This document shows, piece by piece, positions 4,072 to 21,100 of a stretch of 64,000 bases of DNA; position 1 is the stretch's first letter; every line of letters starts with the position of its first letter. The stretch comes from a virus: positions 13,361 to 77,360 of the IMG/VR virus record IMGVR_UViG_3300005541_000008; one strand, given 5' to 3'. Both the position numbers and the translations under genes were made by a program. The notes beneath the pieces are model-generated. The model was not told where the DNA came from and did not search any database. It was given only the letters and a program-made list of their open reading frames with translations.

Positions 4072-4090
4072 GCCGATCCCCTCTCGTGGC

Positions 4091-4354
4091 TTACTGGATG
4101 ATTGAGTGGAAGAACTGTGTCACGAGCGTCCAGGTCTCCGTGTTGCTGCCCCTGTTAAACAGGGTGACGGAGTTCGAGTCCCATTGCGCCGTTAAATACG
4201 CGGCGGGGACGTTTGTCGCGATCGTTGCGGCGGAATATGTTGCAATCCCCCAAACGATATGCGGCAGACGCCCTAGGCCGTGCGCGAAGGTTGTCGAACC
4301 GGAAGACGCTAACGACACAGTCCTCGTGTCGATAAAGGTTCCCAGTAACGTCAC
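4091..4354 (-). CDS. Small beta-rich protein, possibly virion fibre/decoration domain
   Basis: AGGAGG RBS before GTG; TTFAHGLGRLP motif resembles fibre tip domains. Confidence 0.5.
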   Translation of the reverse strand: MTLLGTFIDTRTVSLASSGSTTFAHGLGRLPHIVWGIATYSAATIATNVPAAYLTAQWDSNSVTLFNRGSNTETWTLVTQFFHSIIQ

Positions 4355-4405
4355 GGGTCCTACCTCCTATACGGTATCGGAGGCGCACACATCCCGGCGC
4401 ACAAT

Positions 4406-6133
4406 TCACGGCACCCTCTCGAGTAGTTGGCCATCATCCGCGCAGTGCGGATTCTCGGCAAGTTCTCCCTCGGAGCGAAACGTCCAATCCGTTCCACACT
4501 GAGAGCAACGAGCCATGATGAGGTTTTGCTGCTGCTCAGCTGCCCAACCCAAAAACCCCTTAAAATAGGCTTTCGCGGTAGCAGTCCCGAAGAAGTTCCC
4601 GCCCCACCGTTGCACAGTTCCCAGCACATCGTCCGGCGGAATTTGCCCGGCGAGAATTTGCTCGAACTGTTCAGGGGTCGTTATTCTCGCGAGAAGTTCT
4701 TCGAGTTGTGGATAAAAAGCCCGGTCGTTCGCTTCTGCTGCGTTGCGTATTGCCTGAAACACGGGTAGCATTGCTTCTTCCTTTACTACCTCTGCTTGCA
4801 TAACGGGTTCAGCCCCCGGTTCGGTGACTGGAATGTGCTCAACAACCGGCGCCGGAGGAGGCGGCGGAGGTGGTGCGGTTGCTTCGGGCCCGAGCGGTTC
4901 TTGCGCTTCAACCGGAGACGTCTCGGAGAGAGGAGACGGTGATGGAGACGTCTCGGCGGGTAGTGGAGGTGGTGTGAAGGAAGGAGGGAAGCCTTCCATC
5001 GGTGCTCGAGGAGGCGGCTGGACTGTCGCTCGAGGAGGTTGCTGCGCCTGAGGTGGCGGAACCGCAGCTCCCGACTTGTACGCAACAATCGCCGAAACCA
5101 TCCTCGCAGTATCCCCCCAAATTTTCCCCGCTTGCGGAGCGAGTGCCCTTATAAGTTCTATCGCAGGAGAGACCGGCTCCCCTCCTCCGCCTCCGCCTCC
5201 ACTCTCGTGTATTAAGGGAGCGAGGGTCGTGATGAGGGTAATCATGCGATCCGTGTTATCGGGCTGCGGTGCGCTCGGAGGAGGTGTGAAGAGCTCCTTG
5301 AGGCGAATCGCCATCTCGATAGGGTCGACAGCAGGTGTTGTGTCCCGCGGCGCTGGAGGCGCCATCGTTTTGAGGAGGCCCCCAACCCTCTCGAGGACGG
5401 CAAGAGGATCGGGGGCTGCGGGCGGTGGTGCTGGTGCTGGGGTTAACTCTTTAATCGCTTTTGCGAGCTCGACGATTGAGGGTTGCGGGGCTTGCGCAAC
5501 GGGGGTTGTGGTGGGTGCCGCAGAATCTCGTCCCGTCTTATAAATCTCGGCAACCGCTTTGAAAACCGGTGTTATGTCGGGCGTCGGAGGTGTTGCGGGC
5601 GCAGGAGGAGGTTGCATGGACTTCACAATCTCAACGGCCTTAAGAAGGAGAGCAGTCGGATCGCTTTGCGGCGCGTTACCGTTCTGGGGGTGTGTGGCGG
5701 TGACCGCAGGAGGCGGCGGCACACTGAGCGTTATGCGCTGCGCCGCAATAATTCCCGGCGTGTTTTGCTTGATGAGCTTTGCTTCGTAGATGCCGTCTGT
5801 CCACCCCCGTGCGATCGCTGCCTTGAGAACCTCGCTCTCGATATCCTTAAGCAGCTCGGGTTGTTCGAAGTCGAGGAGGAAGACGGGGTTGTTGCCGTAC
5901 TCCTTAGGCACCGGGAAGCGCTTGTAGAGCTTTATGTAATAGCCCTCGCCCGCCGGAATGTGCGAAAAGAGATTCGCAACAGTTTCGCCCTCTGGAGGTG
6001 CTGACGGAACGAGGATTTCGTCAGGTGGACGCTCGGGCAGCGAGCCGTCGGATTTGTCGCGGTCCGCATCCCTCACCCGATCACGTCCCATCGAGACGAT
6101 TGCGTCGTCTACCGTAGCGCGCGGCTTGGCCAT
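4406..6133 (-). CDS. Large Pro/Ala-rich protein with repeated short amphipathic helices and C-terminal CxxC...C motif
   Basis: 575 aa ORF; helices such as LLLKAVEIVKSM, SIVELAKAIKEL, PIEMAIRLKEL separated by poly-Pro linkers; first gene of the leftward operon. Confidence 0.8.
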   Translation of the reverse strand: MAKPRATVDDAIVSMGRDRVRDADRDKSDGSLPERPPDEILVPSAPPEGETVANLFSHIPAGEGYYIKLYKRFPVPKEYGNNPVFLLDFEQPELLKDIESEVLKAAIARGWTDGIYEAKLIKQNTPGIIAAQRITLSVPPPPAVTATHPQNGNAPQSDPTALLLKAVEIVKSMQPPPAPATPPTPDITPVFKAVAEIYKTGRDSAAPTTTPVAQAPQPSIVELAKAIKELTPAPAPPPAAPDPLAVLERVGGLLKTMAPPAPRDTTPAVDPIEMAIRLKELFTPPPSAPQPDNTDRMITLITTLAPLIHESGGGGGGGEPVSPAIELIRALAPQAGKIWGDTARMVSAIVAYKSGAAVPPPQAQQPPRATVQPPPRAPMEGFPPSFTPPPLPAETSPSPSPLSETSPVEAQEPLGPEATAPPPPPPPAPVVEHIPVTEPGAEPVMQAEVVKEEAMLPVFQAIRNAAEANDRAFYPQLEELLARITTPEQFEQILAGQIPPDDVLGTVQRWGGNFFGTATAKAYFKGFLGWAAEQQQNLIMARCSQCGTDWTFRSEGELAENPHCADDGQLLERVP

Positions 6134-6153
6134 ATTGAGAATTCCCGGGTTGT

Positions 6154-6356
6154 GTGCCGTGTTGCGGTGCGGTGCGGTGCTCTGCGCGTGGCTCGTGGCT
6201 CGGTAGGTGCGGTGATGTATTGCAACGCTGCCGCGCTGTATACTGCCATATGCAACGTGGCAGCGTTGCGTGTGCAGTGCCTTCTAGCGCCCGCTACGGC
6301 TTTCCGACTCCGGAGTGCGTAGCGTTGCTTTGCGCCACAGGGCGCGGTGCAGCGCC
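6154..6356 (+). repeat. Degenerate GY-NNN pentamer tract resembling the arrays at 25.4-28.6 kb
   Basis: Seven consecutive pentamers at 6154-6188 and one perfect unit G[GTGCG][GTGAT][GTATT][GCAAC][GCTGC] at 6206-6231. Confidence 0.5.
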
Positions 6357-6513
6357 TTGAGGCAGATAGCGCGAGGTTGTGTAGGGCCTCTGCTATCTTG
6401 AAGTCAATTTTAACACAGAAAATTTGAATAGGCAACTCGGAATTTTGAGTTTTGAGCTCTTTTTTCTTTGAGGCCTTGAGTTATGCTCGTTATCCCCTGT
6501 TATGCTCCTTGCT

Positions 6514-6598
6514 TTGACCTCTTATATATCATAATATACATAGTATCTTATGTATTTTATAATAATTTGTATGTATAATAATATATAAGAGAGCAAAA
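6514..6598. other. Very AT-rich tract bounded by an inverted repeat; candidate origin or regulatory element
   Basis: CTCTTATATAT (6519-6529) and ATATATAAGAG (6581-6591) flank an AT-rich core, between divergent genes. Confidence 0.5.
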
Positions 6599-6658
6599 CA
6601 GTAGTCATTTTGTGGCCCTACTGGGGCACAAATCGCGCACGGACCATAGGGAGGAGCC

Positions 6659-7432
6659 ATGGAAAAGCTACAACCCAAGATCATTTCCCGTCCTCGGGGT
6701 ACTGGTGAGGATTGTGTTTGCGAGTGTTGGGGGTGTAATCAGCAATTTTCGAATATAATTCCTACGTTATATTGTGAAAATTGTCGTGGTTCTATGCGTG
6801 CTCCGCGCTCACCTTTGCGCTGCACGTGTAAGGAGTGCGGGCATACTTGGGAGAGGAGAACGGAGACACCATCGTACTGTCCGAAGTGTATGAGTAGAGA
6901 GTGGGACGGGCCACTAAAGAGAGGGGAAGTAGAAAAGGAGTTCGTGATTTGTCATAAATGCGGGTCGCAAAAGCAGAAGGGGAAGATTGTGTGTATCGGG
7001 TGCTTGCAACCGAACACGGAAACGGCGTATTATTGTGGTCTGACAACGAGACAGTACGAGAGTTTCAAACGGTTTGTGCTCGCATACAAAGGGGAAGATC
7101 TGGTTGTGTTAGGGTTTAGAAAGCTACTCGAGTCTCCAACGCGCGAAATGGAAACGAGACCCGAGCCCGAAGCCCCGATCCCGATACTCCAGCTCCCTGA
7201 ACCCGACCCACCGCAACTCGACCCACTTCCTAAGGAAGAGCCAGAGCCCGACCCCGAGTTACAGCCCGAAGCGCTTCCTCAACCCCCTGAACCCGAGTCG
7301 CCGAGCGAAGACGCGCTTCCGTTGTTTATGGAATTCGCACCCCCTACTCCCGATCCGATACCCGAGGGCGAGGAAGTCCCGACGGAAGAGGCGCTCAAGC
7401 TCCTTCGGAAGATAAAGTGGGAGGTAGAATGA
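6659..7432 (+). CDS. Multi-Zn-finger protein with Pro/Glu-rich tail; putative regulator
   Basis: GGAGGAG RBS; six CxxC pairs; acidic PE-rich C-terminus. Confidence 0.75.
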   Translation: MEKLQPKIISRPRGTGEDCVCECWGCNQQFSNIIPTLYCENCRGSMRAPRSPLRCTCKECGHTWERRTETPSYCPKCMSREWDGPLKRGEVEKEFVICHKCGSQKQKGKIVCIGCLQPNTETAYYCGLTTRQYESFKRFVLAYKGEDLVVLGFRKLLESPTREMETRPEPEAPIPILQLPEPDPPQLDPLPKEEPEPDPELQPEALPQPPEPESPSEDALPLFMEFAPPTPDPIPEGEEVPTEEALKLLRKIKWEVE

Positions 7433-7436
7433 GGGC

Positions 7437-7471
7437 AAAAAAAGAGCCACTCAACTCTCGAGTGGCTCTTT
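7437..7471 (-). terminator. Intrinsic terminator, probably bidirectional
   Basis: AAAGAGCCACTC / GAGTGGCTCTTT hairpin with a T run on the - strand, between convergent genes. Confidence 0.8.
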
Positions 7472-7479
7472 CTCTTCGG

Positions 7480-7758
7480 TTATTTCTTCGCGCCGGCCGT
7501 TTTGGCCATCGCGTCCCGGACTTGCTGTTCCTTCCACGCCCGGAACTGCTTGATCTCTTCGGCCGTTTTCTTCCGGCGGTCCTTCGCTGCCTGCTTCGCT
7601 TCGGGGCTCTGCGTGTACTGGAGCCGTTGGAACCGAAGCTTGAGGGTCGCGTTGGCGAGGTCGAGCACCCCTTGGTCACCGTATTTCTGCTTGAGTTCTA
7701 CCATGGTGAGGGGTTTGAACTCGGTCGGATCCGCAGCCGGGGTCGTTTGGGTAGCCAT
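7480..7758 (-). CDS. Small basic helical protein, possible nucleic-acid binder
   Basis: AAGGAGG RBS, own promoter and terminator; K/R/A-rich. Confidence 0.8.
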   Translation of the reverse strand: MATQTTPAADPTEFKPLTMVELKQKYGDQGVLDLANATLKLRFQRLQYTQSPEAKQAAKDRRKKTAEEIKQFRAWKEQQVRDAMAKTAGAKK

Positions 7759-7849
7759 TGTGTTGCCTCCTTTTATATGCGCGTGTCTCGCGCGTTGGGT
7801 TATTTTATGGGCCTTGTCTCCAAGTGGCCTTTCTCAATCTTACATCTTC

Positions 7850-7878
7850 ATTATACGCCTTCTTAAAAAACATGGCAA
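7850..7878 (-). promoter_or_regulatory. sigma70-type promoter
   Basis: TTGCCA-17 nt-TATAAT on the - strand upstream of 7480..7758. Confidence 0.75.
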
Positions 7879-8013
7879 CGAAAAAATCGCGCGTCGAGAA
7901 AATTTTTTTCGCGCCAAAAACGCCTCTAAAAATGTTTTTAGAGGGTTGTGCACTTTTTTGAACCCCCCGTGTTCACTAAAGTGAGACTCGCGAAGCCCGC
8001 CGGTAGGGGTTTA

Positions 8014-8152
8014 TTTTTCTACGGGTCGCGCGTGGGTACGGAAATGTTTTTCTACGGGTGCGTCCGTCGGAAAATGTTTTTCTACGGATAAACCGTAGAG
8101 ATTTAGATCCGGATCGGGAACCGGATTTGTACGGGTCGCAACGGTAGAAAAA
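8014..8152. repeat. Iteron/operator-like repeats TTTTTCTACGG
   Basis: Direct copies at 8014, 8047 and 8077; partial copy at 8130; inverted variants at 8093 and 8142. Confidence 0.7.
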
Positions 8153-8195
8153 GGGATCCAGAAGTCACTTTCTCGGGGAGGGAAAAAGATTTTCC

Positions 8196-8224
8196 TTGCC
8201 TTTCGGGTTTAATTGAGTTATAAT
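8196..8224 (+). promoter_or_regulatory. sigma70-type early promoter
   Basis: TTGCCT-17 nt-TATAAT upstream of 8268. Confidence 0.8.
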
Positions 8225-8267
8225 GATGTCAATGGGGTCTCTATACATCTCAGCGAAGGGGTAAACG

Positions 8268-11200
8268 ATGCCCGACTTAAGTGACGACGAGTATAAGGAG
8301 TTAGTCGAGTCCGCTGTCACTGCGAGAGAAGTGACCTGTCCGATGTGCCGCGGGAGATGGCTGGCGTCCCTAACCGAGGAAGATATAGAAAACGGCGTTG
8401 GGTTTGAGATAGTGTGTTTTGAGTGTTTGCTGGGTGAGGTGCAAGGTGACCGAGGAGAGATGTGAGATTTGCGAGGAGTTGACGCGCAACGGACGGAAAT
8501 TTCGGGTTGCGCTAGGGGTCAACTCTGACGGAACGCTGAAGGCGAAGCACGATCACGCGATTTTGGAGTCGTTGATTGCGTCGCCGCAGCGCAAAACCCT
8601 TACGAAAGAGGAGAGGGAAGCGTTTAGGAAGTGGAAGGAGCGGGGAAGGGGGTGAGCGAAGCGTGAAGTATATAACTACAAGCGAATTTTTTCGCGGCCG
8701 CCGTAGATTTCCTTCAATGGAAAAAGCGCAGTGGGAAACGCTCGAGTACGACACCTTAGTTGACGGGATTCCGTTTGCTGCGGGTAGTAGGTTTAAGCGG
8801 TTCGAGACACTAAACTTCGGGTATGTTGTGTTTGATAGAGAAGCCAGAACGCCGGAGGGATGGATTCCGGGACGGAGAGTGTTTAGGTGGTAGGTGGAAG
8901 GAGGTGATGTTTCGTGTATATGACACCCAACATAAGATCCACGCTCACGCTCAATATCGGGATTGCAAAGGACCCGAAGTGTAGCGTGTGCGGGCGAAAA
9001 ATCCGCAACAACGAAGACTTTGGGATTACATACACAGAGCCCTGGGTGTTTTGGCATTGGAAGTGTAAGGAGGAGCGCGATGATCCAAAAACACTGCGGT
9101 GAATATCTCCGCCGGCTCAGTTCCGACAAGGAAGGCTTCGAGCTGCGCTACCACAAGTGGCAGTGTCAGATTTGTGGACGCATATTCACGCAGAAGTCTC
9201 GTGTCGAGAATGTAGAGGCTGCGCAGAGAGACCACTTGGACATGGCTTTTCAAGTAGTTCAAGGGGTTATGGATAGGGTACGCGGCGTAGTCGAGGTGCT
9301 CGAAACGACTCCGGAGCGCGACCAAAACATCAACGTTGTGGAGGAGTTTAAAGAAGTGCTTAGGGATATGACACGGCTCAAGCACAACCTCTACGGGATA
9401 CGGAAGGAGTAGCCGATGTACCTTGAGATTCCGAACGACCCTGCGAGTAGGGCGAGAGTTTTGCGTGCCGTGAATGAGGTTTTTGTTAAAAGGGGCGAAA
9501 GTCCGCTCACGCCCGAAGAAGTCGAGCATATCTTAACGGCGAAGGGCGTTGAGATTAGCGAGGCCAAAGCGGGGTTTAGAATGAAGTTTGTGTATGGAGA
9601 GGGGGAGAAGTGAGCAAGGTAGACGATATCGACTGGTCCGCACACGACGAGTTTAGTGAAAACACGTGCTATTGTAGGTGCGGCGCCGTGTTTAGGAGTC
9701 ATGTTAAGCTCATCGAGCTCGAACAACGTTGGGTCTCGGCGACACGAAAGCCGTGTTCGGGGTGCGGGTCGCGCGTTAACTGTAAGGGGATCGAGTCGGA
9801 TCCTGAGACGTTCACGATCAAGGGGAAGAAGGATGCACTCTAGGGTCGCAAAACTCCCGCAATACAAGGGCATCCCAATTCCCTTCAACGCTACCTACCG
9901 CACTGACGGGACCCCGGACTTCAAAGTGGTCAATGAAGAGAACCGTTGGAGATGTGCGAACGAGCGCCTCTGTTGGATTTGCGGAGAGCCGTTGGAGTAT
10001 TGGATTGTTTTTGTAGGAGGGCCGCGCTCGTGCGAGAATAGGCTCTTTATCGACGGTCCTATGCACGAGGAGTGTGCGTTGGACGCGGTTGAGATTTGCC
10101 CCTTCCTTGCGGGGAGGATGGATTACGCGAAGACCTTCGATCTTTCGAAGCACGACCCCGCGCTCAAACTCGAGGAGAGGGTGAGTCATCCGCCGCCAGA
10201 GAAGATTGGGCTCTATAAAACTAGGGGCTTCGAGGTCAAAACCGCACGCAACTCGTGGTTTTTCTTCGCGGGGAAGGCAAAACAGATCACGTGGGTGGAC
10301 AGAAAGTCGCAGGGGTAAGGTGCGTTTTTATAAATACGACTACTGGCCGAGTGATCCGGGAGCGCCCGTCTTCTATGTGGTTATCGTGGAGCCGTCTCTC
10401 GTAGCGCATATAAGGCGTTATAAGGGAAGGGTAGAGATCACACAAGTGCATATGGATGGCGAACTGTGTCGAGAACTTTCTGGGTGCACTTCGAGGAGAA
10501 TCAGTGAGGAGGACGTGCCGGGAGCGTTGAGACTCTGGATCGAGAGGCAGGAAAAGCAGTTAGCCGAGTTTGGTGAGTGGTGCAAGACGTTGAGAAGGAA
10601 GTACGCGAGGAAGAAAAGGGGGGCGCGACGTGGGTAAGCCGAGTTGTTTCGAGTGCGTGCACGGGGGTATCACGGGCGCAGAGCCCGAGGTCGGGATCCT
10701 CGGTCCGTATCTCGAGGAGTGTAAGGCAGCAGCGTTGACCGAGGAGATGATAGACCAGGTTGATAAGACGAGCCTAATAACTAAGGGCGTGAAGGAGTGT
10801 CTGACCGAGAAGGAGCTCGAGGGCGTTGCCTCGTTTTGCTACGAGGAGGAGTACGCGAAGCGTTGCGGGCACTTCGACCCCGTGCTCATTGAGAAGTGCG
10901 GGCAGTGCGGGAAGAGGATGCGGGTGCCGAGATTCTCGTGGGGGTTGTTTGCGGAGTATTACGGGGACATGCCGGTGTGTAGTGAGGAGTGTAAAAAGGC
11001 GTTCGAGGATGAGTGGGTAGGGGACGAGGAGGATTGAGGTGGTGGATTGTTTCGAAACCGTAATGGGGGTCTTCTTCACGATTGTTGTGTTCCGTGCGCT
11101 ATTCACGATCGTTAGGGTAGTGCACGATCTCGCACGCGAACGGAGGGAAAGGCAACGCGTGAAGTGGATTGAATCGGCAACGAAGTTCGGGGTTAAGAAG

Positions 11201-11658
11201 GAGGAGTAATATGCAAGGAGAAAAATACTACCGCGAGCTGCTCAAGAAGTATATCCGCTTGCTCGGGGTCGAAGAGGGTGTTTATTACGAAGGGGAAGTT
11301 TATGCGGGTCGCGAAGACTGTGGGGTTGCGTGGACCCGCCTAGACGTGGACGAGTTTGGAACAATCATAAGAGAGATTCGCAGGGAAGAAGAGGAGGTGC
11401 GGCTTGGCAAACGAACAAATCCCGCTTAGAGGCGCAGCACATGTCACAATACACTGTCCCGGGTGTGCGAAGACGCTCGGGGCGTATACGAGGCTCGATC
11501 CACCCCACCCGAAGAACGCACGGACGTATTTCGGGACGTTGGTGTGTACTGAGGCTAAGTGCGGCGTGATTATGACGATTACGATTAATGCGCAGCGGCC
11601 GACTGGAGAGCCGGATCTCGAGGCGGGGGAGACGGGGGGTGTTGAGGCGGGGAAGTGA
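8268..11658 (+). other. Cluster of small coupled early ORFs, many with CxxC Zn ribbons
   Basis: Overlapping start/stop ORFs, e.g. 8268-8465, 8914-9102, 9416-9613, 9610-9843, 10630-11037, 11404-11658. Confidence 0.65.
9833..10318 (+). CDS. Conserved phage hypothetical protein (Cys/His-rich)
   Basis: LCWICGEPL...DGPMHEECA...CPFL; ATG at 9833. Confidence 0.7.
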   Translation: MHSRVAKLPQYKGIPIPFNATYRTDGTPDFKVVNEENRWRCANERLCWICGEPLEYWIVFVGGPRSCENRLFIDGPMHEECALDAVEICPFLAGRMDYAKTFDLSKHDPALKLEERVSHPPPEKIGLYKTRGFEVKTARNSWFFFAGKAKQITWVDRKSQG

Positions 11659-11897
11659 GTTGCGGACTCTCGCAAGAAGTAGAAGACGCGCTCGCCCGAA
11701 TCGATTTCAACGCGATAGGCTTAATGAGTTTGGTGAACACGATGAGGAGAGTACGACACGGTAGGGCAAATACCTCGTTCAAGGCACAGCTAGTACGTGA
11801 GGACGCGGGAAGTGTGTGGCTGAAAGTTGTAATGATAGCGAGGAAGATGGAGGCCACGGCAGATCATGTTGATGGCGGCTCGGAGGTTAAGGAGTGA
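11655..11897 (+). CDS. Paralog-array mini-protein
   Basis: MSCGLSQEVEDALARI...HVDGG. Confidence 0.8.
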   Translation: MSCGLSQEVEDALARIDFNAIGLMSLVNTMRRVRHGRANTSFKAQLVREDAGSVWLKVVMIARKMEATADHVDGGSEVKE

Positions 11898-12160
11898 GTT
11901 GTGAGCCGAAGAACGTACTCGGGGCGGTTGAAGCTATCGCAGAGGACTTGCGTTTTTTGTGTGCGCGGCTACGTATGGGATTAGCGAGGAAGGAAGGCCC
12001 CTTACCTGCACTAGGCACGTGGAAGTGGATCAAGGATGACATAGGGAGCTTGCAGCGGGTTGTGGATCATACAGACGCGGGCGCTGAGACAGCACGGACG
12101 CTGTTTGCTGTGGGCCTTATTGACGACGCCGAGGGCCGAGGTGAGTACGAAGTGCGGTGA
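11894..12160 (+). CDS. Paralog-array mini-protein
   Basis: MSCEPKNVL...WKWI...HTDAG. Confidence 0.75.
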   Translation: MSCEPKNVLGAVEAIAEDLRFLCARLRMGLARKEGPLPALGTWKWIKDDIGSLQRVVDHTDAGAETARTLFAVGLIDDAEGRGEYEVR

Positions 12161-12380
12161 GAAGGATTGTAGCGCTGAAGCCGAGATTTGGACCGTGCTC
12201 GAGACAATCGACAGATCTGCTGTGTATTTGTTGGAGTACGCGAACCTCATACGGGGGGTTTCAGGGCTCGGCAAGGAAAGCAGAACGCGGGCCATGTGGA
12301 ATTGGGTGATTACTATTGTAAGGGGGCGTATGTTGTATGTAGTGAAGCACGTCGACAACAACGCAGGGGGCGAGTGGTGA
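12141..12380 (+). CDS. Paralog-array mini-protein
   Basis: GTG at 12141; MSTKCGE...WNWV...HVDNN. Confidence 0.7.
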   Translation: MSTKCGEKDCSAEAEIWTVLETIDRSAVYLLEYANLIRGVSGLGKESRTRAMWNWVITIVRGRMLYVVKHVDNNAGGEW

Positions 12381-12610
12381 GTTGCGGTAAAGCGCAGGAG
12401 TTAGAGGTTGTTGTCAAGCTTATCGCGTGGAGCGTGGAGGGCTTTCCTCCTATGATCGCGGATATGAGAATTATCCCTTATAAGGGGCCTGCACCTTACA
12501 CGGGCGTCGACAAAGCGCGGGTGTATTGTGATATAGACAACGCGTGGATACGGATCAGGATTGCGACGCAGAGGCTGTTATCGCTGGTCGAGCACGTGGA
12601 TGAGGTCTAG
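12377..12610 (+). CDS. Paralog-array mini-protein
   Basis: GTG at 12377; MSCGKAQELE...HVDEV. Confidence 0.75.
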   Translation: MSCGKAQELEVVVKLIAWSVEGFPPMIADMRIIPYKGPAPYTGVDKARVYCDIDNAWIRIRIATQRLLSLVEHVDEV

Positions 12611-12733
12611 AGGAGATGAAACCATGAAGGGAGTCTTTCTGGTGTTGATCATAACTTCTGTGCTTCTGCTTGTAAGAGCGCTTTTTTTGAGACGCAGGTA
12701 GATTTTGCTGAGACGAGACGACGGGGAAGGGAA

Positions 12734-12979
12734 ATGAGTTGCGGACACATAGACGTAGAGTCGATGCTCAGCCACCTTACTGGTTTTGTTATGGGCGTGC
12801 GGATCGACGTGCGGAGGGCGAGGGACGGGAAATTGAGTCCTTACCCTAGCCGTAAGTGGTATTGGAACGACATCAGCTCGGCCGAAGCGTGGGGACGTAT
12901 TGTGATCTCGGTAGAGAGTATTAACAAGACGCTCGAGCACGTGGATGGTGATGAGGATGGACCCGAAGGATGTGCTTGA
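12734..12979 (+). CDS. Paralog-array mini-protein
   Basis: MSCGHIDVE...WGRI...HVDGD. Confidence 0.75.
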   Translation: MSCGHIDVESMLSHLTGFVMGVRIDVRRARDGKLSPYPSRKWYWNDISSAEAWGRIVISVESINKTLEHVDGDEDGPEGCA

Positions 12980-13133
12980 TACAATAGGGGGCATCGCGGA
13001 GGGCTTATGTTTTGTGTGTGGTGAGATGCGCTCGGGGCTGAATAAGGGAAAGGCCCTACTTGTGTGGGGTTTGATTCGGAGCGATAACGAGCACTTGCAA
13101 GATGTTGTGCAGCGTTTCGAGCGAGGGGATTAG
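12945..13133 (+). CDS. Paralog-array mini-protein (closest to 11894-12160)
   Basis: DPKDVLDTIGGIAEGLCFVCGEMRSGL aligns with EPKNVLGAVEAIAEDLRFLCARLRMGL. Confidence 0.65.
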   Translation: MVMRMDPKDVLDTIGGIAEGLCFVCGEMRSGLNKGKALLVWGLIRSDNEHLQDVVQRFERGD

Positions 13134-13135
13134 GG

Positions 13136-13336
13136 ATGGAGCCCGAGTTTGTTTATGAGGTAGAGGTAGCGCTCGATGTGGTGGATCATTCTACGGGGTG
13201 GTTAGTCGCGTATGCGGAGGAAGTGCGTACGGGAAAGGTCTGGATGAAACCGAGTCTTTGGTTGGAGATAGTGCGGGAAGCGGAGAGGATGATGTTTGTC
13301 GTGACGCATGTTGAGGACGGCGGCGCAGGGAAATGA
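13136..13336 (+). CDS. Paralog-array mini-protein
   Basis: EVEVALDVV...WLEI...HVEDGGAGK. Confidence 0.75.
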   Translation: MEPEFVYEVEVALDVVDHSTGWLVAYAEEVRTGKVWMKPSLWLEIVREAERMMFVVTHVEDGGAGK

Positions 13337-13563
13337 GTTGTAACCTACCACACGAAATTGAAGACGCGCTTGCACGGATTAGGTTTAGCGCGATGGGTTT
13401 GAGAGGTTTGTTGAACTCGGTACGGAGAGTGCGGGATCGTGGAGCGGAAACTCCGTCCAAGGCGTTGTTAAGGCGTAAACACGCGTGGTTGAGTATTAGA
13501 GCGGTGGCGGGGAGCCTGGAAGACGTGATAAACCACGTTGAAGACGGCGGGGGCGGGAAGTGA
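13333..13563 (+). CDS. Paralog-array mini-protein (closest to 11655-11897)
   Basis: MSCNLPHEIEDALARIRFSAMGL...HVEDGGGGK. Confidence 0.8.
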   Translation: MSCNLPHEIEDALARIRFSAMGLRGLLNSVRRVRDRGAETPSKALLRRKHAWLSIRAVAGSLEDVINHVEDGGGGK

Positions 13564-13772
13564 GTTGCGGCCACGGATGGGAGCTAAAAGAGGCGGTCAA
13601 CATAATTGAAGGAGGCGCCGCGCTAATCTCGCTCCACGCGCGGAGGGTTTTGAGATACACACACCAGGTTGATTATCGAGTGAATAGGGACCGTCGACAT
13701 TGGAGCGAGATCGTGTCAATGGCTCGGACGTTGGATAGAATTACGAGGCATATAGAGGGGGAAGAGGGGTGA
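13560..13772 (+). CDS. Paralog-array mini-protein
   Basis: MSCGHGWELKEAV...HWSEIVSMARTLDRI. Confidence 0.8.
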   Translation: MSCGHGWELKEAVNIIEGGAALISLHARRVLRYTHQVDYRVNRDRRHWSEIVSMARTLDRITRHIEGEEG

Positions 13773-13999
13773 GTTGTGACACACCTCGATGGGAATTAGA
13801 AGAGGCGCTCTTTATGATCGATAAGGGCGGCGCCCTAATTTCGCGCTGCGCACGAAGTATTTCGAGAGACAGGGACCGAGTTGATTGGTGGCGTGATGAG
13901 AACCGCACCCGCCAGCACTGGGGGGAGATCGCGTCGATGGCCCGGACGCTGGATAGAGTTGCAGGACATGTAGACGACGGGAAAGGGGAAGGAGGGTGA
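13769..13999 (+). CDS. Paralog-array mini-protein
   Basis: MSCDTPRWELEEAL...HWGEIASMARTLDRV. Confidence 0.8.
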   Translation: MSCDTPRWELEEALFMIDKGGALISRCARSISRDRDRVDWWRDENRTRQHWGEIASMARTLDRVAGHVDDGKGEGG

Positions 14000-14202
14000 G
14001 TTGTGGGGAGAATCTTGAGACGGAGTTCGTGATTAAGACGTTTATAGACTACTCACAAGCGCTCCAGTCTTTAGTGCGCAATATGCGGGCATCGACGCCG
14101 TACTGGAATATGGCGTTTTGGAAGGACGTGAAGTTTCACACTAGAAATCTAACGGCGATTATGGATCATTTGGACGGGGAAGGGAAAGGGAAAGGGAAGT
14201 GA
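13996..14202 (+). CDS. Paralog-array mini-protein
   Basis: MSCGENLETEF...FWKDVK...HLDGEG. Confidence 0.8.
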   Translation: MSCGENLETEFVIKTFIDYSQALQSLVRNMRASTPYWNMAFWKDVKFHTRNLTAIMDHLDGEGKGKGK

Positions 14203-14621
14203 GTTGCGGGGAAGGGCTTAAGACGGAATTCGTGCTTGGGGCGTTTGAAAAGTACCCACAGGAGCTTCAGGTCTCGGTGCACAATATACGTGTGCCGACG
14301 CCGTCGTATTGGAAAGAGATCGTATTTTGGAAGGACATAAAGTATAATATAAGGCACCTAGCACTAGTCATAAACCACTTAGACGAGGAAGGAGGGGCGG
14401 AAGTGAGCTGCGACACAAAACTCGAGGTGAACGCTGCGCTTGATGAGATCGAGCAGATTGCGAAGGATCTCCAGGCGCTGGTTGTTGAGATGAGAAATTA
14501 TAAGTCGCTCGAGAAGACGCAGGCGACGTGGGATGAGATTAAGAAGAAGGTGAAGAGGCTTAATTGGGTGATTGCGCATGTGGACGATGCGGCGATCCGG
14601 AGGCATTGTGAGAGGGCTTGA
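14199..14621 (+). CDS. Paralog-array protein made of two in-frame units
   Basis: MSCGEGLKTEF...HLDEEGGAE continues directly into VSCDTKLEVNAAL...HVDD. Confidence 0.75.
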   Translation: MSCGEGLKTEFVLGAFEKYPQELQVSVHNIRVPTPSYWKEIVFWKDIKYNIRHLALVINHLDEEGGAEVSCDTKLEVNAALDEIEQIAKDLQALVVEMRNYKSLEKTQATWDEIKKKVKRLNWVIAHVDDAAIRRHCERA

Positions 14622-14814
14622 GCTGGATCAGGCGCTCCGTGATGTTGACGGCGGCGCATGGAGCTTGTTGCGGATTTTGGCGGATGACCGTGCTGTTAGG
14701 GGCATGTGGATAGATGAGCAGATGTGGAATGGCCTGAAAGCGCAGGCGGAATTTATGCTAGAGTCTGTAGAAATGGTGGACGGATGGGAGAGTACGAGAT
14801 GGATGACGCGCTAG
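14608..14814 (+). CDS. Paralog-array mini-protein (diverged)
   Basis: GGAGG + GTG at 14608; LELDQALRDV...WNGL...VDG. Confidence 0.65.
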   Translation: MRGLELDQALRDVDGGAWSLLRILADDRAVRGMWIDEQMWNGLKAQAEFMLESVEMVDGWESTRWMTR

Positions 14815-15026
14815 TTGAGTTGCGCCACGTGTTGGAGTATGTGTATGGAAGTGCGGAGAGTATGTTATGGCTCTTAGGAAGCTCTCCCCGTATTGGGGGC
14901 ACCTATGTTAGGAGCACCTATACTGGGCGCGGGCAGTGGGGCGGACGGCTAGACGTGCTCTCGTGGAAGCTATTGGTGAGAGAAGTAGAGCTCATGAAAG
15001 CGCGTGTCGACACGGTAGAGGGATGA
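14784..15026 (+). CDS. Paralog-array mini-protein (diverged)
   Basis: MGEYEMDDAL...WKLL...VEG. Confidence 0.6.
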   Translation: MGEYEMDDALVELRHVLEYVYGSAESMLWLLGSSPRIGGTYVRSTYTGRGQWGGRLDVLSWKLLVREVELMKARVDTVEG

Positions 15027-15229
15027 AGGAGCTCGAGGTGGGGGTGGCGTTATTGCGTATCCACGAGCATGCGCAGATTATGAAACACGTTGTATCAAAT
15101 CGGCGCAGCTACCCATCAGAGTTTCCTCTGCGGTGGACATTAGAAAGGCTCCTAGAAGAGATAACCCTTCTGCAGCTTACCATGGAAAGGGTGGATGATG
15201 AGAATACGTCTGGGAGCGTCCTGGGGTAG
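15023..15229 (+). CDS. Paralog-array mini-protein
   Basis: MKELEVGVALLRI...MERVDD. Confidence 0.7.
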   Translation: MKELEVGVALLRIHEHAQIMKHVVSNRRSYPSEFPLRWTLERLLEEITLLQLTMERVDDENTSGSVLG

Positions 15230-15236
15230 CGAGGGA

Positions 15237-15431
15237 ATGAAGGAGCTCGAGGTAGGGGATGCTCTAGAGTACATCAACGAACAGGCGCGGATTATAAAGT
15301 ATATCACGCTGGAAAACCGCCGCGTGTCGGTGCTTTCCATGCAGTACACGTGGAGTAGACTCGCAGGTGCAGGGGGCTTTTTGCAGTTTGTTATGGAAAG
15401 GGTAGATGGCACGGAAGCGACAAAGACTTGA
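15237..15431 (+). CDS. Paralog-array mini-protein
   Basis: MKELEVGDALEYI...MERVDG. Confidence 0.7.
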   Translation: MKELEVGDALEYINEQARIIKYITLENRRVSVLSMQYTWSRLAGAGGFLQFVMERVDGTEATKT

Positions 15432-15612
15432 GATCCTAGATATAGAAGAAGCGCTCCCAGCCGTTTACATGCGGCTTTCTGCTCTGAAGACGCTCGTAGA
15501 GAAGGCGAGACGCTACAAATCGCGCGCGAAAATGCGGGAGGTGATGGGGGAGATCGCGTACGAAGGGGAGCGCATGCGGGATTTTGTGGAGTGTGTGCGG
15601 GATGATGTATAG
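15406..15612 (+). CDS. Paralog-array mini-protein (diverged)
   Basis: LDIEEALPAV...RRY...VECVRDDV. Confidence 0.6.
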   Translation: MARKRQRLEILDIEEALPAVYMRLSALKTLVEKARRYKSRAKMREVMGEIAYEGERMRDFVECVRDDV

Positions 15613-15639
15613 ATAGCTAACACGGGAAGGAGGTGTCGA

Positions 15640-15993
15640 GTGTCAATAAAAGACATCCAAGAAATAGGGGTAGTAACCGACGAACCCGAGTTTGGGGACT
15701 CGTGGCAGGAAATAGTCAGGGAGATCGAAAGGACAGATAAAGTGCCATTCCACGGTGCTTTCTACGCCAGCTACGGAGAGGGCGACACTACTTTTGCTCT
15801 CCTTGAGTTTTCAGAACAAGGTAGCGCAGAGGCCCTGTTTGTTGTAGGTCAGGGAGAGGCGTTAAGGCCTTATATAGAGCATTACAAGGGCTCGAGCGAT
15901 TCGGCCGCTTTAAGGGCCTTTTTCAACGCTATACAAGGCAAAGATAGGTTGACAAAGGAGTTCAAGAAGTGGACGAAGGAAGGGGGCCGTTAG
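15640..15993 (+). CDS. Hypothetical protein
   Basis: AGGAGGT RBS; unrelated to the flanking paralogs. Confidence 0.65.
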   Translation: MSIKDIQEIGVVTDEPEFGDSWQEIVREIERTDKVPFHGAFYASYGEGDTTFALLEFSEQGSAEALFVVGQGEALRPYIEHYKGSSDSAALRAFFNAIQGKDRLTKEFKKWTKEGGR

Positions 15994-16259
15994 CTCTACC
16001 TCGTAAAGTACCGGATCCGCGTGTGATGCAAGGAAACGGATTTCGCTACCCCGAGACTGTTAAGGATCTCGAGGTGTTGGATGCGCTCGAGAGGATTGAA
16101 GGGCGTGTGGAGGAATTGGTGCGTTGCGTGAAGGACGGAAGGCGGTATCGGACGGAGATGATGCTTTGGATTATACGGGATCGCCTTTGGGAAGAGGGGG
16201 CAAGGTTGCGGAGGGTTGTGAATAGGGTGGACGATGGGGGAATAGCGTATGACGGTTGA
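15969..16259 (+). CDS. Paralog-array mini-protein (last unit; true start probably downstream)
   Basis: KDLEVLDALERI...RRY...VVNRVDDG. Confidence 0.65.
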   Translation: MDEGRGPLALPRKVPDPRVMQGNGFRYPETVKDLEVLDALERIEGRVEELVRCVKDGRRYRTEMMLWIIRDRLWEEGARLRRVVNRVDDGGIAYDG

Positions 16260-16647
16260 TGAGATTAACCAGGGCGTTGCGAAGTGGATAGAGCCTGAAC
16301 CGCCGAAGATGCGCGAAGATGCTGATGTGCTCCTCGCGGAAGGGCGGACGATCGAGTCGCCGGGCGGGGGTTGGGAAGCAGCGTGGAGAGGGTTTGAACC
16401 GGATTGGGTGCCCGCACCGTTTGCGACGGATATTAGGGCCGCGTGGAAAGTGATCGAGAAGCTCCGGAACAGCGGGAAGTGGTGTTGCGTTGAGGTCGCG
16501 TCTGACTACCACTACACGTATATTGTGAACCTTAGAAAGACGGAAGATCCCGAGCACAAGCCCGACATACACGTCGACGCGGACACAGCGCCTATGGCAA
16601 TATGTCTCGCAGCGCTAAAGGTCGCAGAACTCGAGGCTGAGAGGTGA
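16249..16647 (+). CDS. Phage ABA sandwich domain-like protein
   Basis: PFATDIRAAWKVIEKL...ADTAPMAICLAALK. Confidence 0.75.
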   Translation: MTVDEINQGVAKWIEPEPPKMREDADVLLAEGRTIESPGGGWEAAWRGFEPDWVPAPFATDIRAAWKVIEKLRNSGKWCCVEVASDYHYTYIVNLRKTEDPEHKPDIHVDADTAPMAICLAALKVAELEAER

Positions 16648-16672
16648 GGTCCACATACGAAGCACTTTTCCC

Positions 16673-16701
16673 TTGCTTTTGATAACCCGTTGATATATAA
16701 T
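16673..16701 (+). promoter_or_regulatory. sigma70-type promoter
   Basis: TTGCTT-17 nt-TATAAT. Confidence 0.75.
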
Positions 16702-16753
16702 AGAAGTGTTATCGAACAAAGCGCTTCGTGCGCGGAAAGGGGGTGATGTGTAG

Positions 16754-17053
16754 GTGTATAGACAGGGCGATGTGCTAGTAACCCGGTTTGACGGAAAGCT
16801 TCCGAAGAGCGTTGTGCGCAAGGAAAATTGCGTGCTTGCCCTCGGAGAGGTCACGGGTCACTCGCATCAAATCAAAGAAGGGGCGGTTATGTACGAGGAC
16901 GTCGATGGAACGAAGTACGTCGAAGTGCTCGGCGAGACCGCTGATCTCGTTCACGAGGAGCATGGTACCATCTCGCTCCCAGGCCCGGACGTGTATCGCG
17001 TAACGCAACAGCGCGAGTACACTCCGGAGGAAGCAAGGAGGGTAGCAGATTGA
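16754..17053 (+). CDS. Conserved His-rich small protein, usual partner of DUF6745 proteins
   Basis: MYRQGDVL...LALGEVTGHSH...LVHEEH...QREYTP. Confidence 0.8.
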   Translation: MYRQGDVLVTRFDGKLPKSVVRKENCVLALGEVTGHSHQIKEGAVMYEDVDGTKYVEVLGETADLVHEEHGTISLPGPDVYRVTQQREYTPEEARRVAD

Positions 17054-18129
17054 GCATCGCGGAGGATAGTCTCAATCGCCTAGTCGAGAAGTGGACTGCG
17101 ATTGAGCGCTGTACAGAACCCGCGGACCGAGCTCAGGCTGAAGCTACCATTGTTGGCATGTATGAGGAGACGGGTTTAGGCCCGTCTCCCAACATGCACT
17201 GGGTAGCTAGTCCGTGGGAAGGAATGGAAATGGCTGCGTATATTAAGCAGCGGGATTATCGCGTTGGCACGGCCGTCTGGAGGTTTGCGGTTGACGCGAT
17301 CCTTAGGTATCCTGAGAAGGCGAATACGAGGAATGTGTTAGGGCTGAGCGAGAGCGCGGTGCAGAGTGCAATCGCGAGCTTCCCTGGGGGCATTACGGAG
17401 CTTGTGAGGAGGGAAGTGCAGAAGGATCAGCCTATGCACAAGAGCGGTGTTGTGGGGAGGGCGAGAGCCGGGTCGCTTGACGCGAGCGAGGCGCTACGCG
17501 CTGAGATGTACGAAATGCAAGGGGTTGATATCGGGGGCATGAAGTGGTTGAAGCTCATGGCCGAGTATTGCGGGTTTTGGTGGATCTTTAAAGGGGACGC
17601 GGTGTTGTGTGAGAGACCCACGGCTGTGTGTTTTGAGACACCGACCCCGAGGAATGATGAAGAGCGTCAGCTTGCAGCGCGGGGGAGGTTGAGAAGGCGG
17701 TTGCACAGTGGCGCGGGACCTGCGATTGGGTGGAGCGATGGAACGGGGATCTATGCTTGGAGGGGGGTGTTGGTTGCGGAGAACGTGATCACGAAGCCTA
17801 ACGAGATGGATCCGCAGGCGATTATCACGACACCGAACATGGAACAGAGGCGCGTGATGATGGAGCGCTACGGCTACGATCGACTGTTCTCGAAGCTCGC
17901 ACATAAGGTGCTCGATGAGGATGTGGACGGAGGGGGGCAGAAGAGAAAGCTCCTCCGGATCCAGGTGAGTGGAGATGAGGACCTCGTGGTCGTGAAGGTG
18001 TCGTGTCCGTCGACGGGGAGTGTGTATTTCCTTAGGGTGCCGCCGGATACGAGGAAGTGCGCGCAGGGCATTGCGTGGACCTGGGGGATCGCGAGTATTA
18101 AGGATTATAAGCCGTTAAAGGAGACGTGA
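17050..18129 (+). CDS. DUF6745-like domain protein
   Basis: LHSGAGPAIGWSDGTGIYAWRGV, NMEQRRVMMERYG, CPSTGSVYFLRVPP, IAWTWG. Confidence 0.8.
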   Translation: MSIAEDSLNRLVEKWTAIERCTEPADRAQAEATIVGMYEETGLGPSPNMHWVASPWEGMEMAAYIKQRDYRVGTAVWRFAVDAILRYPEKANTRNVLGLSESAVQSAIASFPGGITELVRREVQKDQPMHKSGVVGRARAGSLDASEALRAEMYEMQGVDIGGMKWLKLMAEYCGFWWIFKGDAVLCERPTAVCFETPTPRNDEERQLAARGRLRRRLHSGAGPAIGWSDGTGIYAWRGVLVAENVITKPNEMDPQAIITTPNMEQRRVMMERYGYDRLFSKLAHKVLDEDVDGGGQKRKLLRIQVSGDEDLVVVKVSCPSTGSVYFLRVPPDTRKCAQGIAWTWGIASIKDYKPLKET

Positions 18130-21100
18130 TGGGGAGGGTGAGGAGGTGGTTGAAGGATATCTTCGATCCGAGGGAGCCTCCTTCACTCCTCGCGGCGCTC
18201 GAGATCGAGTTCCTAAAGCAGCAGAACGCGGCGCTTATGCGCGAAAGGGCGTATGTGGACCGCGAGAGGTTGTATCTTAGGCAGTTATGGCTTATTGTCG
18301 AGGCGCTCAAAGCCTGGGAAGGGATTTCGAATCGCTTTTGTGTAGGACCAGGGGATAAGTGTTTGAAGTGCGCTGCGGCTGGGCGTCTCGCGGATACGAT
18401 ACGAAACTCGGTGCTGGAGGTGTCGTTTAAGGAGGGCAAGGGTGCAGAGACCGAGAGTGAGTCTATTTCCAGGGCCGAATGAGCCGCCTTGTCAGTATCG
18501 GTTCCCTTTGGTTTGCAGGGTTGCGCGACGTCTCAAGAAAGAGAACCCTAAGCTCGCGAAGATGTTTTTAGAGGAAGCGCGGGAGTGTGAGACGTATAAG
18601 CGCCTTGTGAAGCTTGCTGAGTGTTATGTAGAGCTTTACACGCCGAGGGCGGTTGAAATTGTTGAGGACGTAGCACGGAAGATGTAGGGAGTAGCTCGAT
18701 GTGCGGCACACAGCGCACAGTGGTTCTGGTTCACAAGGGGTGCAAGGGTCTCGTGATTGAAGACAGAAAACGCCCCCCTTACGTTTATGAGCGCGACGAT
18801 GGTACGCGGGAGTATCATTTCGCGCTCGTTTGCGTTAAGTGCAGGGTTGAGATTTTAGGGGACGATATGCTCGAGGACGTGTAGAGGAGGGTGATTGAGA
18901 TATGTGTTGCGGGGACATTCTTATTTGGCCCGAGGTTGAGGAAGAAGAAGGGGCGCATCTTGGTCGATGCTCGGTAACCGGGCGGGGTTTGGTCGCCCCG
19001 TTAGAATCCTCCCGACCGACGGGATTCCCGGTCCGCCGTCGGGCCCCTTTACTTAAGGGAGGGAGGGTGGTTGTCGGGGTTGTGCTAGGTATGGCGCTGT
19101 CGCTCGGCACAGTACACGCAGAACACCTCTATCCTCAGGGCGAGGACCAGGCCGACCAGCCGTGTAAGTATCGCGCGGATGGGGAGCCTTATGGGTGTAG
19201 TGCTGAGGAGGCGGTGAAGGAAGAGATAAGGGCGGCTTCGCGTAAGAACGACCGCGAGCTGTTGAAGGGTAAGGGGCTGCGCGTCGAGGCGCGGGATAGG
19301 GGGGTGACGAGTGCTCACGAAAGAGACGAGAAGGCGGGTGATCGAGAGCTTAGAAGATGAGGTGTCCGGACACTTAGAAGGGGGGCATCCTCACTCCGTC
19401 GATTGTTGCTGCTCGGCGTGTAAAACGTTGGAGGAATTGAAGCAGGAGGAAGAGAGGTGCACGGTGGCGGAAAGAACAGGGCCAAAGCCCTCAGATAAGA
19501 CGCTGATCGTAAAAGGGCTTCGCGAGGGCAAATTCACGACGTGTAGAGGGACGAAGGAACGCCTGCATGAGTTGATTGTGTACTGGGCGGGGTTTGATAC
19601 GTGCCCGTTGTGCGAGTGTAGAAGGTTGTTGGGTAGTGCACCGAGAGACGAGCCACGGGCGAGGCATGATATGGGAGGATAGCGGTGATGGACGATCTGC
19701 TTAAGGCGATAGGGGTTTTGGGGTTGGCGGTTGTGGCTATTATCTTGGTGGTTGGTTCTTTGCACAGGTAAAGGAGCGGGTTGTGATCGAAATTGTGGTT
19801 GTCACGTCGGAGATCGTGAAACAAGAGGGCGGCGAGAGCTACCCTAACGTACGGGTCGCGAAGTACGCGGTTGAGGAGGAAAAGATTGGGGAGAGGGTTG
19901 CAAGGGTGGCTCAACGCCTCGAGATTGAGAGTACGGCGAGAGAGAGTGATGTGGTAGTGATTGTAGCGCGGAAGAGGCAGGTAGGGCTTGTGGGGTTTAA
20001 GCCCGTAACTGATGTGTATGAGTTTGGAATGGAGACGAAGCGGGTCGAGACCTTGGTGAATCTCCTTGCGGAGGAGTGCGTTGAGGGTGGGTGGATGAGG
20101 TTTAATCACGATGGCGCTTGAGATACCGCGATTTATATTTCCGGCACCCTTTCCCCGCGGTAGCGATAGTGCTCAGGAGATAGCGGTAAAGTACGGGATG
20201 AGTGAGAATATTTTTATCGTGGATGGCAGGGTGTTGTTGGATCTGGATTTCTTGCTCTCTTACTGTAAACTCGACCCTCTCGGGCTGGGGTTTTGTATAT
20301 TGTTTAGATATATGCGTGGCGACACGACAAGGCAACAGTTTAGCACAGAGGAGAAGCGAGATTTTTGGTTTGATGAGTTGCGGGAACGGATAAGCTTCTC
20401 GGAGGAGTTTAGGAAGATTGCGAGGAGAGCGGAGGGGCGAGGTGAGCAAACACTTGGTTACCATCGAACAGGCTAACGGGTATAAACTCGTGGTCGACCT
20501 GCGTTACGTTATAGCTGTGTCTGTTATAAACCATGACAAGCTTCGTGTTAGGCTCGTTACCGGCGAAACGATGAACTTACATTTTGATATCACAAAGGAA
20601 AGGGACGACGCCTATCACGAAGTGAGAGAGCGGTGGTACTTCTGCGGGGATTTCGAAGAAGTGGCCGTAAGAGCAGGGAACACGGAGGTCAGCGAGGAGG
20701 GGAAGCGTGCACCTGACTGAAGAGCCAAAGCCCGGGGATGTGGTGTTGTTGTGCGGGCACGGGGACGAGCATCACGTCTATAAATTTAGCGCGCCTGTAC
20801 GGACTATAACGCCTTGGGGCTATTCGCTCTTTGCCCAGTGGATAGCGGCGTGTGATGCGTGTTTCGAGAAGTGCGGGCCGAACAATGCGGCGAGTATCCG
20901 GATAACAAATCACGGTATCTGGAGAGGGGAGACACGTGACGTATAAGGCGTTCCTAGATCGGATTATCGATGACGGCGAAGCGTGGGCTGAGAGAGACTA
21001 CGGCGAGGGAAACCTTAAGCTCGCAGGGGCGATTGCGGGCTTCGAGGCGTGTAGGGATAAGGAGCCGAAGGAGATTCGCGAGCTGCTCGATAAAGCGCAC

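Follow-up and report, generated by a model that had tools for sequence, protein, structure and literature searches.

The virus recorded in IMG/VR as IMGVR_UViG_3300005541_000008 carries a tandem array of 19 small paralogous units in 18 open reading frames (ORFs), at positions 11655-16259 on the plus strand of the window analyzed here. By the window we mean the whole 64,000-nucleotide stretch of DNA under study, bases 13361-77360 of a 77,360-base linear virus record that is ~70% complete according to CheckV. The units are 58-88 amino acids (aa) long, and a sequence-only reading of this DNA, which had described about 19 tandem mini-genes over the same interval, is confirmed in both count and extent. 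We find that the 19 units are real genes and form one homologous, lineage-specific paralog family. The interpretation we favor, to which we give a probability of about 0.4, is that the array encodes a set of small binders, expressed early, that serve host takeover or counter-defense. Nineteen intact paralogs, 6% of the known 77-kb record, are an unusually heavy outlay for a prokaryotic virus and mark a function in strong long-term demand.

Common descent of the units is supported at several levels. We read the plus strand from stop to stop to define the frames and chose starts afterwards, those of m03, m06, m14, m15, m18 and m20 being our choice among alternatives (units are numbered m01-m18 and m20 in genome order). 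Taking a tandem array to be at least three homologous genes on one strand of a viral genome, we count 19 such units, all on the plus strand. When each unit in turn was left out of the family hidden Markov model (HMM) and searched with the remainder, 18 of the 19 were recovered with E values of 1e-14 to 7e-3 (Z=10^6), so the possibility that profile comparison would reveal no homology among the copies can be set aside. The remaining unit, m15, scored 16.3 bits (E 0.42 at the same Z). Single linkage by all-against-all BLASTP likewise leaves out m15 alone, none of whose pairs falls below E 0.05; m15 stays in the family because of what it scores against the HMM, because it pairs with m14 (tree support 92/91) and because it lies inside the array. 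Five subfamily pairs had been named from the sequence, and all five proved to be the best BLASTP pairs, at 38-52% identity: m01/m08 (48%, E 5e-20), m02/m06 (38%, E 2e-9), m09/m10 (49%, E 9e-20), m11/m12 (52%, E 2e-22) and m16/m17 (47%, E 9e-11). No other ORF of at least 40 aa in the 77-kb record scores above 8 bits against the family.

A skeptical account would hold that the array is a functionless expansion, in which helix-prone ORFs of a G-rich coding strand were copied by unequal recombination at conserved junctions. The coding-strand GC skew of ~0.3, the fact that the junctions are the sole conserved DNA and the family's lack of relatives all fit such an origin. It is contradicted, however, by the signal of selection, and we regard it as highly improbable. 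Nei-Gojobori dN/dS is 0.29-0.39 at dS 1.0-1.2 in the four closest pairs, more distant pairs being saturated, evidence of purifying selection on the copies. Not one of the 19 frames is broken, far as the copies have diverged, and the heptad core and motifs are conserved as protein. The terminal His-Val-Asp, for example, is written with CAT or CAC, with all four GTN codons, and with GAT or GAC; because its codons vary it is a motif of the protein, and on the same grounds we rejected a DNA motif, CACGTG, at this position.

The copies are old, with dS ~1 or saturated. Repeated DNA in the region is limited to the gene junctions, 20-33 nucleotides (nt) long, and there is no recent duplication or gene conversion. 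The tree resolves pairs only. An old block duplication is suggested by m02/m06 and m03/m07, which are collinear, along with m01/m08, and m09/m10, m11/m12 and m16/m17 are old single-gene tandem duplications. A second contig of 73,265 bases carries the same proteins, differing only in whether a GTG start is written as M or V; with identical proteins on the sole other contig, there is no population signal or strain variation. The sequence-only reading had called the repertoire diversifying, and current diversification was not borne out: the copies are old, their dN/dS is that of constrained genes, and the one available comparison reveals no change.

The predicted structure separates a conserved scaffold from a variable surface. 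AlphaFold2, run on m01 with a 19-row alignment, returns an alpha-helical hairpin (pLDDT 82) with helices at residues 5-34, 40-48 and 51-74, the short helix 40-48 lying in the connecting region; the hairpin anticipated from the sequence was thus recovered in the monomer model. Across the 19 aligned units (alignment A1), the conserved columns are hydrophobic residues and Ala at 3-4 heptad spacing in both helices, with an entropy of 0.8-1.6 bits, while most remaining columns lie near 3 bits. What is conserved, then, is an a/d hydrophobic core plus a few further residues: Glu or Asp at the start of helix 1 (18/19), Arg at its end (16/19), Trp at the start of helix 2 (16/19), and a terminal motif of His (12/19) or Arg, Val (14/19), and Asp or Glu (18/19). 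The conserved Glu, Arg, Trp and H/R-V-D/E residues may serve as clasps of the scaffold at the hairpin ends, since they would pair at both ends of an antiparallel hairpin. Each copy has its own exposed faces and its own inter-helix region. The latter was expected to be a widely varying central loop, and it does vary in each copy, in length (10-25 aa) as well as in sequence.

One part of the terminal motif raises the possibility of a metal site. Cys near the N terminus and His near the C terminus occur together in 11 units, His alone in one, Cys alone in none, and neither in seven (Fisher 1.6e-4), a co-occurrence that is confounded by the split of the family into two subfamilies. Units lacking the two residues mostly have Arg at the His position. 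This pattern may reflect a metal site in one subfamily and a salt bridge in its place in the other. The earlier suggestion that the terminal Cys and His form a metal site therefore gains support from the co-occurrence, confounded as that is by subfamily structure, and the site stays putative.

The composition of the variable parts bears on another possibility, namely that these are ROP-like nucleic-acid-binding hairpins regulating viral or host RNA or DNA, such as structured RNAs or the unusual repeat tracts elsewhere in the genome. Rop is a helical-hairpin dimer of similar size and topology. The inter-helix region is basic and rich in aromatic residues (R+K 19% and W/Y/F 11%, versus 12-15% and 6-8% in the helices), and three copies are basic overall. 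Net charge nevertheless ranges from -7 to +4 across the copies, and is -1.5 or below in 10 of 19 and about -1.4 to -0.3 in three more. Moreover, the basic residues do not fall in conserved columns, and none of the 11 units scanned matches Rop or another nucleic-acid-binding family in Pfam. We consider regulation of this kind improbable.

The genes are packed so closely that their ends carry signals for their neighbors. Nine junctions, including that with the Cys-rich gene upstream, are four-base RTGA stop-start overlaps; five more are longer overlaps, two are gaps of 2-7 nt and one is an in-frame fusion. The tail that follows the terminal motif is rich in Gly (27%) and Asp plus Glu (24%), and the purine-rich Shine-Dalgarno sequence of the next gene is coded within the Gly/Glu/Lys tail of the preceding one. 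This arrangement affects how the apparent protein motifs should be read. An RTGA overlap makes codon 2 begin with A, so that Ser2 (11/19) is always AGY and never TCN; its codon is AGT in 10 of 11 cases, against 19% of Ser codons genome-wide. Because of the stop-start overlap and the tail-encoded ribosome-binding site, part of the conservation of the opening MSC and of the terminal DG stretch lies at the nucleotide level. Cys3 (10/19, with the Cys of m03 at residue 5) is encoded by a mixture of TGC and TGT, indicating conservation at the protein level, as for H-V-D. Of the shared motifs claimed initially, the Trp that opens helix 2 and the terminal His, Val and Asp/Glu hold up in the counts given above, while MSC and the Gly-rich end are partly constrained as nucleotides. 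We also considered the junction DNA as a site of cassette shuffling and found no need for it: the tail, the Shine-Dalgarno sequence, the stop-start overlap and the MSCG codons explain the conservation, and nothing is conserved past codon 3.

With these junctions the array is a translationally coupled chain, which suggests that the copies are produced jointly. The locus is a clean natural example of a long coupled chain in which C-terminal tails double as the next ribosome-binding site. Joint production is also what one would expect of subunits, and the units might build a homo- or hetero-oligomeric helical assembly of four-helix bundles or larger coiled-coil lattices, for example the scaffold of a replication or assembly compartment; the paralogs would then be a defined or combinatorial subunit set, with Cys/His ends linked by a common metal ion. 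Long two-helix hairpins usually bury their core by dimerizing. The model's structural neighbors include oligomeric designs, prefoldin, ESCRT-III, EsxEF and SSV1 D-63, the conserved positions are the core positions, and a natural in-frame fusion of two units, m12 and m13, is tolerated. No second conserved hydrophobic stripe is present beyond the a/d core, however, and the spread of charge and of inter-helix length is odd for equivalent subunits. The array also sits in a non-structural gene block. The AlphaFold2 model of the fused unit is not a confident bundle: its m13 half reaches pLDDT 94-96, and its first half, m12, stays below 50, a half that also lacked alignment depth. As a proxy for a heterodimer this fusion was uninformative, all alignment rows having fallen on the m13 half. 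On balance we find the assembly account doubtful.

We return to the binder repertoire as the reading that best accommodates these observations. It would be a one-scaffold repertoire of intracellular binders, each copy specialized for a different host protein or variant, and the copies would be made early to take over the cell or to block its defenses. The array would have grown by old tandem and block duplications, and selection would have retained each copy since. For the Cys/His subfamily (m01-m13), a metal ion might be held where the hairpin opens, by Cys3, the conserved Glu, His and Asp; in the other subfamily, Arg in the His position might do the same job by salt bridges. Support comes from the conserved core with its variable surface, the position in the genome, the orphan status of the family and its expansion, the last two being typical of arms-race genes. 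Likely counter-defense genes are found elsewhere in this virus (QueC, a radical-SAM protein and GTP cyclohydrolase I; NADAR), and the duplication and clustering of AcrID1 genes in rudiviruses offers a precedent (PMC11065993).

Several points weigh against this interpretation. We infer early expression only from gene order: the promoter and terminator scan, which assumes that sigma-70 rules apply in the host, lists promoter-like sites upstream of the array, one at 6535 and one at 8196, and from 11953 to 15777 it lists no terminator-like site. With identical proteins on the only other contig, there is no relative to reveal copy-number turnover or positive selection, and the copies, old and without recent duplication, do not look like an active genomic accordion. 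Making 19 hairpins with a common core in equal amounts would suit co-assembly just as well. Finally, the fold is too generic for the structure to hint at function, the best matches being de novo designed hairpins on a plateau at Z 7-8.5.

A more specific form of the idea, which we put forward tentatively, is that the 19 co-translated hairpins are a natural binder library built on one scaffold, which would jointly neutralize a set of distinct host proteins, immune or housekeeping. Its members share a core and would share an end clasp of Cys/Glu/His/Asp (or an Arg salt bridge), and they differ in their exposed faces and inter-helix regions. If true, such a library would be a new, compact and designable family of counter-defense proteins. 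The units are tiny idealized hairpins that resemble designed binders; they should be easy to express, fold and screen, and are possibly useful as scaffolds.

Tandem arrays of small paralogous immunity genes are reportedly a hallmark of polymorphic toxin systems, and the array would resemble them if each copy were instead an immunity- or antitoxin-like neutralizer of one toxin, whether from abortive-infection or toxin-antitoxin systems of the host or from the polymorphic toxins of competitors. The units are suitably small, mostly acidic and helical, and an antitoxin-type anti-defense gene has been described in a virus (PMC11065993). Yet no toxin gene or domain adjoins the array, none of the 11 units scanned matches a Pfam immunity family, and the proposal is a special case of the binder repertoire rather than a separate mechanism. 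We think it unlikely.

Searches for relatives place the family within this virus alone. An HMM search, as proposed at the outset, was run against 1.84 billion representative proteins and returned only this virus's own proteins and two chance matches, so the family is confined to one virus (two contigs, identical proteins). Both chance matches are inflated by repeats and were rejected as relatives: P0008 is a Calx-beta repeat protein in which a short V-D-N-D stretch matched 11 times, and P0020 has six near-identical helical repeats of 3-7 bits each. The family had been described as unrecognized, and no library we searched contradicts this. Pfam, searched with 10 ORFs (11 units) to E 1, gave no match except a weak PF24729 match of the fused unit; PHROGs gave nothing above noise; PADLOC, whose models cover defense and not anti-defense, gave one weak chance match; and a profile search of PDB sequences gave only designed helical proteins at E ~1e-3 or weaker. 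By structure, Foldseek found nothing at E <=0.001 in PDB or BFVD, a wide VIA-align search led only to generic hairpins on a plateau (over 1,100 chains at Z >=5), and the best ESM Atlas score, 0.77, is below a useful level. Related viruses were sought with a single unit, which found nothing; with PolA, which found only phages at 25% identity; and with the neighboring DUF6745 protein, which retrieved a single complete phage, unrelated, that shares the two-gene module described below and lacks the array. Scans of viral and metagenome contigs for the junction pattern turned up unrelated tandem repeats, and a six-frame HMM scan found no family member. As no homologue of any kind was found, homology gives no inference about anti-defense function. 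By the same token, with no relative among ~15 billion predicted proteins, whatever function is found would be the first of a new family; the protein family is new and so far unique, while the general kind, a lineage-specific viral multigene family, is known.

The array can be followed gene by gene along the plus strand (E values are those of the leave-one-out HMMs). Upstream lies an 84-aa Cys-rich gene with a CxxC...CxxxxC pattern (11404-11658), a non-member with no Pfam match; its stop codon and the start of m01 overlap (GTGA), so that the array prolongs a translation chain already under way. The first unit, m01 (80 aa, 11655-11897, E 2e-12), is of the MSC...HVDG type. It is followed by m02 (88 aa, 11894-12160, E 2e-7), the partner of m06, whose extended C-terminal tail overlaps m03 by 20 nt; by m03 itself (79 aa, 12141-12380, E 1e-5), the partner of m07, with a start chosen from the shared GTGAGT signature; and by m04 (77 aa, 12377-12610, E 2e-3), which has the longest inter-helix region, 25 aa. 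The array's sole sizeable gap contains a non-member, a putative gene for a 25-aa hydrophobic protein (12624-12701). This mini-ORF and a 56-aa hydrophobic ORF at 11039-11209 have a common GVF...RALF pattern in a predicted membrane segment, and could be a pair of paralogous micro-membrane proteins, of which one lies inside the array.

The family resumes with m05 (81 aa, 12734-12979, E 7e-3) and m06 (58 aa, 12957-13133, or 62 aa if read from 12945; E 1.5e-6), the latter without Cys3 and His. Next come m07 (66 aa, 13136-13336, E 7e-9), with the His and without the N-terminal Cys; m08 (76 aa, 13333-13563, E 3e-14), which is basic (pI 10.2); m09 (70 aa, 13560-13772, E 6e-10); m10 (76 aa, 13769-13999, E 6e-10); and m11 (68 aa, 13996-14202, E 2e-10). 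The fused m12 and m13 form a single 140-aa ORF (14199-14621) that gave two matched stretches in the profile search and has the same 140-aa product on the second assembly. Since m13 keeps its own GGAGG and a GTG start at 14403, it may also be made separately. The subfamily lacking Cys and His includes m14 (~75 aa, 14587-14814, with possible starts at 14572, 14578 or 14587; E 2e-3), with which the weakest member, m15 (~80 aa, 14784-15026, start uncertain), groups in the tree. Toward the end are m16 (68 aa, 15023-15229, E 6e-6), of the MKELEV...RVDD type; m17 (64 aa, 15237-15431, E 6e-8); and m18 (68 aa, 15406-15612, E 4e-5), a basic unit in which Cys replaces the motif His. An unrelated gene, x19 (117 aa, 15640-15993), is inserted before the last unit; it scores 5 bits against the family HMM and was assigned to no family. 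The array closes with m20 (77 aa, 16026-16259, or 96 aa from the GTG at 15969; E 1.4e-7).

In the genome, the array belongs to a long rightward block that precedes the replication genes, on a plus strand that carries nearly all genes from ~8 kb to 50 kb of the window. Plus-strand GC skew is extreme across this block, ~0.3; measured along the coding strand it is sustained at 0.22-0.39 over window positions 8000-40000, and its sign flips where the direction of transcription flips. The host is probably bacterial, given a lytic transglycosylase, overlapping genes led by Shine-Dalgarno sequences and frequent GTG starts. Many small Cys-rich genes lie upstream of the array. Downstream is a Phage_ABA_S-domain gene, then a small GEVTGHxH protein and a DUF6745 protein. 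These last two constitute a two-gene module (16754-18129) that also occurs in the complete phage IMGVR_UViG_3300048774_000008 (L009 8551-10591), where the DUF6745 protein has a long low-complexity repeat insert rich in Gln, Val, Gly, Ser and Trp. At 24579-25433 the window encodes a 284-aa protein in which a putative zinc/iron-chelating domain, CxxCxxCC, was recognized.

Farther downstream are genes for QueC (33524-34183, E 2e-64), a dual-specificity/Tyr phosphatase domain of a kind seen in polymorphic toxin systems (36067-36567), a radical-SAM protein that may be QueE-like (38786-39439), GTP cyclohydrolase I (40094-40669), a NADAR domain (47657-48121) and an AAA_24 ATPase. QueC, the radical-SAM protein and GTP cyclohydrolase I probably make up a 7-deazaguanine DNA-modification pathway, a known anti-restriction strategy of phages, and the phosphatase-domain and NADAR genes are possible host-manipulation or counter-defense genes. 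Also encoded downstream are a uracil-DNA-glycosylase (UDG)-family domain fused to a 3'-5' exonuclease, directly 5' of a separate gene for a family A DNA polymerase domain (40666-43013), a pair that looks like a split PolA, as well as a DUF3987 protein. A 610-aa protein (45644-47476) joins a tyrosine-recombinase (phage integrase) domain to a C-terminal HNH endonuclease domain. The leftward, minus-strand block (G000 1-19500, that is, L012 plus window 1-6133) is presumably structural and matches hardly anything in Pfam or PHROG apart from one transglutaminase-like and one PLD-like domain and a methyltransferase-like match; no terminase, portal or HK97 capsid was recognized among the ORFs scanned there.

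Among proteins of known structure, those closest to the predicted hairpin share two long antiparallel helices of ~70 residues: the de novo designed oligomers 5j0k and 6dmp and SSV1 D-63 (1skv), and further the T4 Vs.4/Acb2-type sponge (7uq2), EsxEF (4i0x) and CooJ (6hk5). These matches (VIA-align Z 7.2-8.5, Foldseek E >=0.5) come with identities of 0-17% and no common motifs, and judged from the model they are fold analogues only, the Z plateau being too low to be informative where folds are helical. Membership in the Rop family finds no support in sequence, with no Pfam match for the 11 units scanned and no PDB sequence match beyond designed proteins; Rop is absent among the fold matches listed, which does not speak against it. 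By sequence, Acb2/Tad1 (PF24729) was set aside, as only the fused unit matched it, at 12.8 bits and E 0.14 versus a gathering score of 27 bits; the structural match to 7uq2, at Z 7.5, is within the generic plateau and speaks neither for nor against a common fold. WXG100/ESAT-6-like proteins are helical hairpins of ~100 aa in which a Trp close to the turn is conserved; they occur as multiple paralogs and form homo- or heterodimers. We rejected this family, there being no PF06013 match for the 11 units scanned and the Trp of the array opening helix 2 instead of lying in the turn, followed by variable residues with no Gly at +2; in context, too, no type VII secretion genes were seen near the array.

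At the level of gene organization the parallels are with viral multigene families. The MGF families of African swine fever virus and the gene accordions of poxviruses are tandem virus-specific paralogs tied to host range and immune evasion. They differ from the array in belonging to eukaryotic viruses, encoding larger proteins in separate transcription units and often undergoing recent copy-number change, whereas the copies described here are old. Also comparable are the AcrID1 clusters of the Rudiviridae (SIRV1/2/3), small early viral proteins with many duplicates encoded close together in one genome. Homologues of AcrID1 are duplicated and clustered in rudiviruses, with 26 of 35 known homologues found in four viruses, and the authors read the clusters as duplication with functional diversification (PMC11065993). 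AcrID1 has no sequence relation to the array and a different fold, and it is an anti-CRISPR, while the hairpins are known here from their sequence alone. AcrID1 genes have their own promoters and lie at the genome termini of archaeal viruses, whereas the array links 19 copies in one coupled chain in what is probably a bacterial virus. It is this coupled-chain architecture, and the number of copies it holds together in a prokaryotic virus, that makes the array remarkable.

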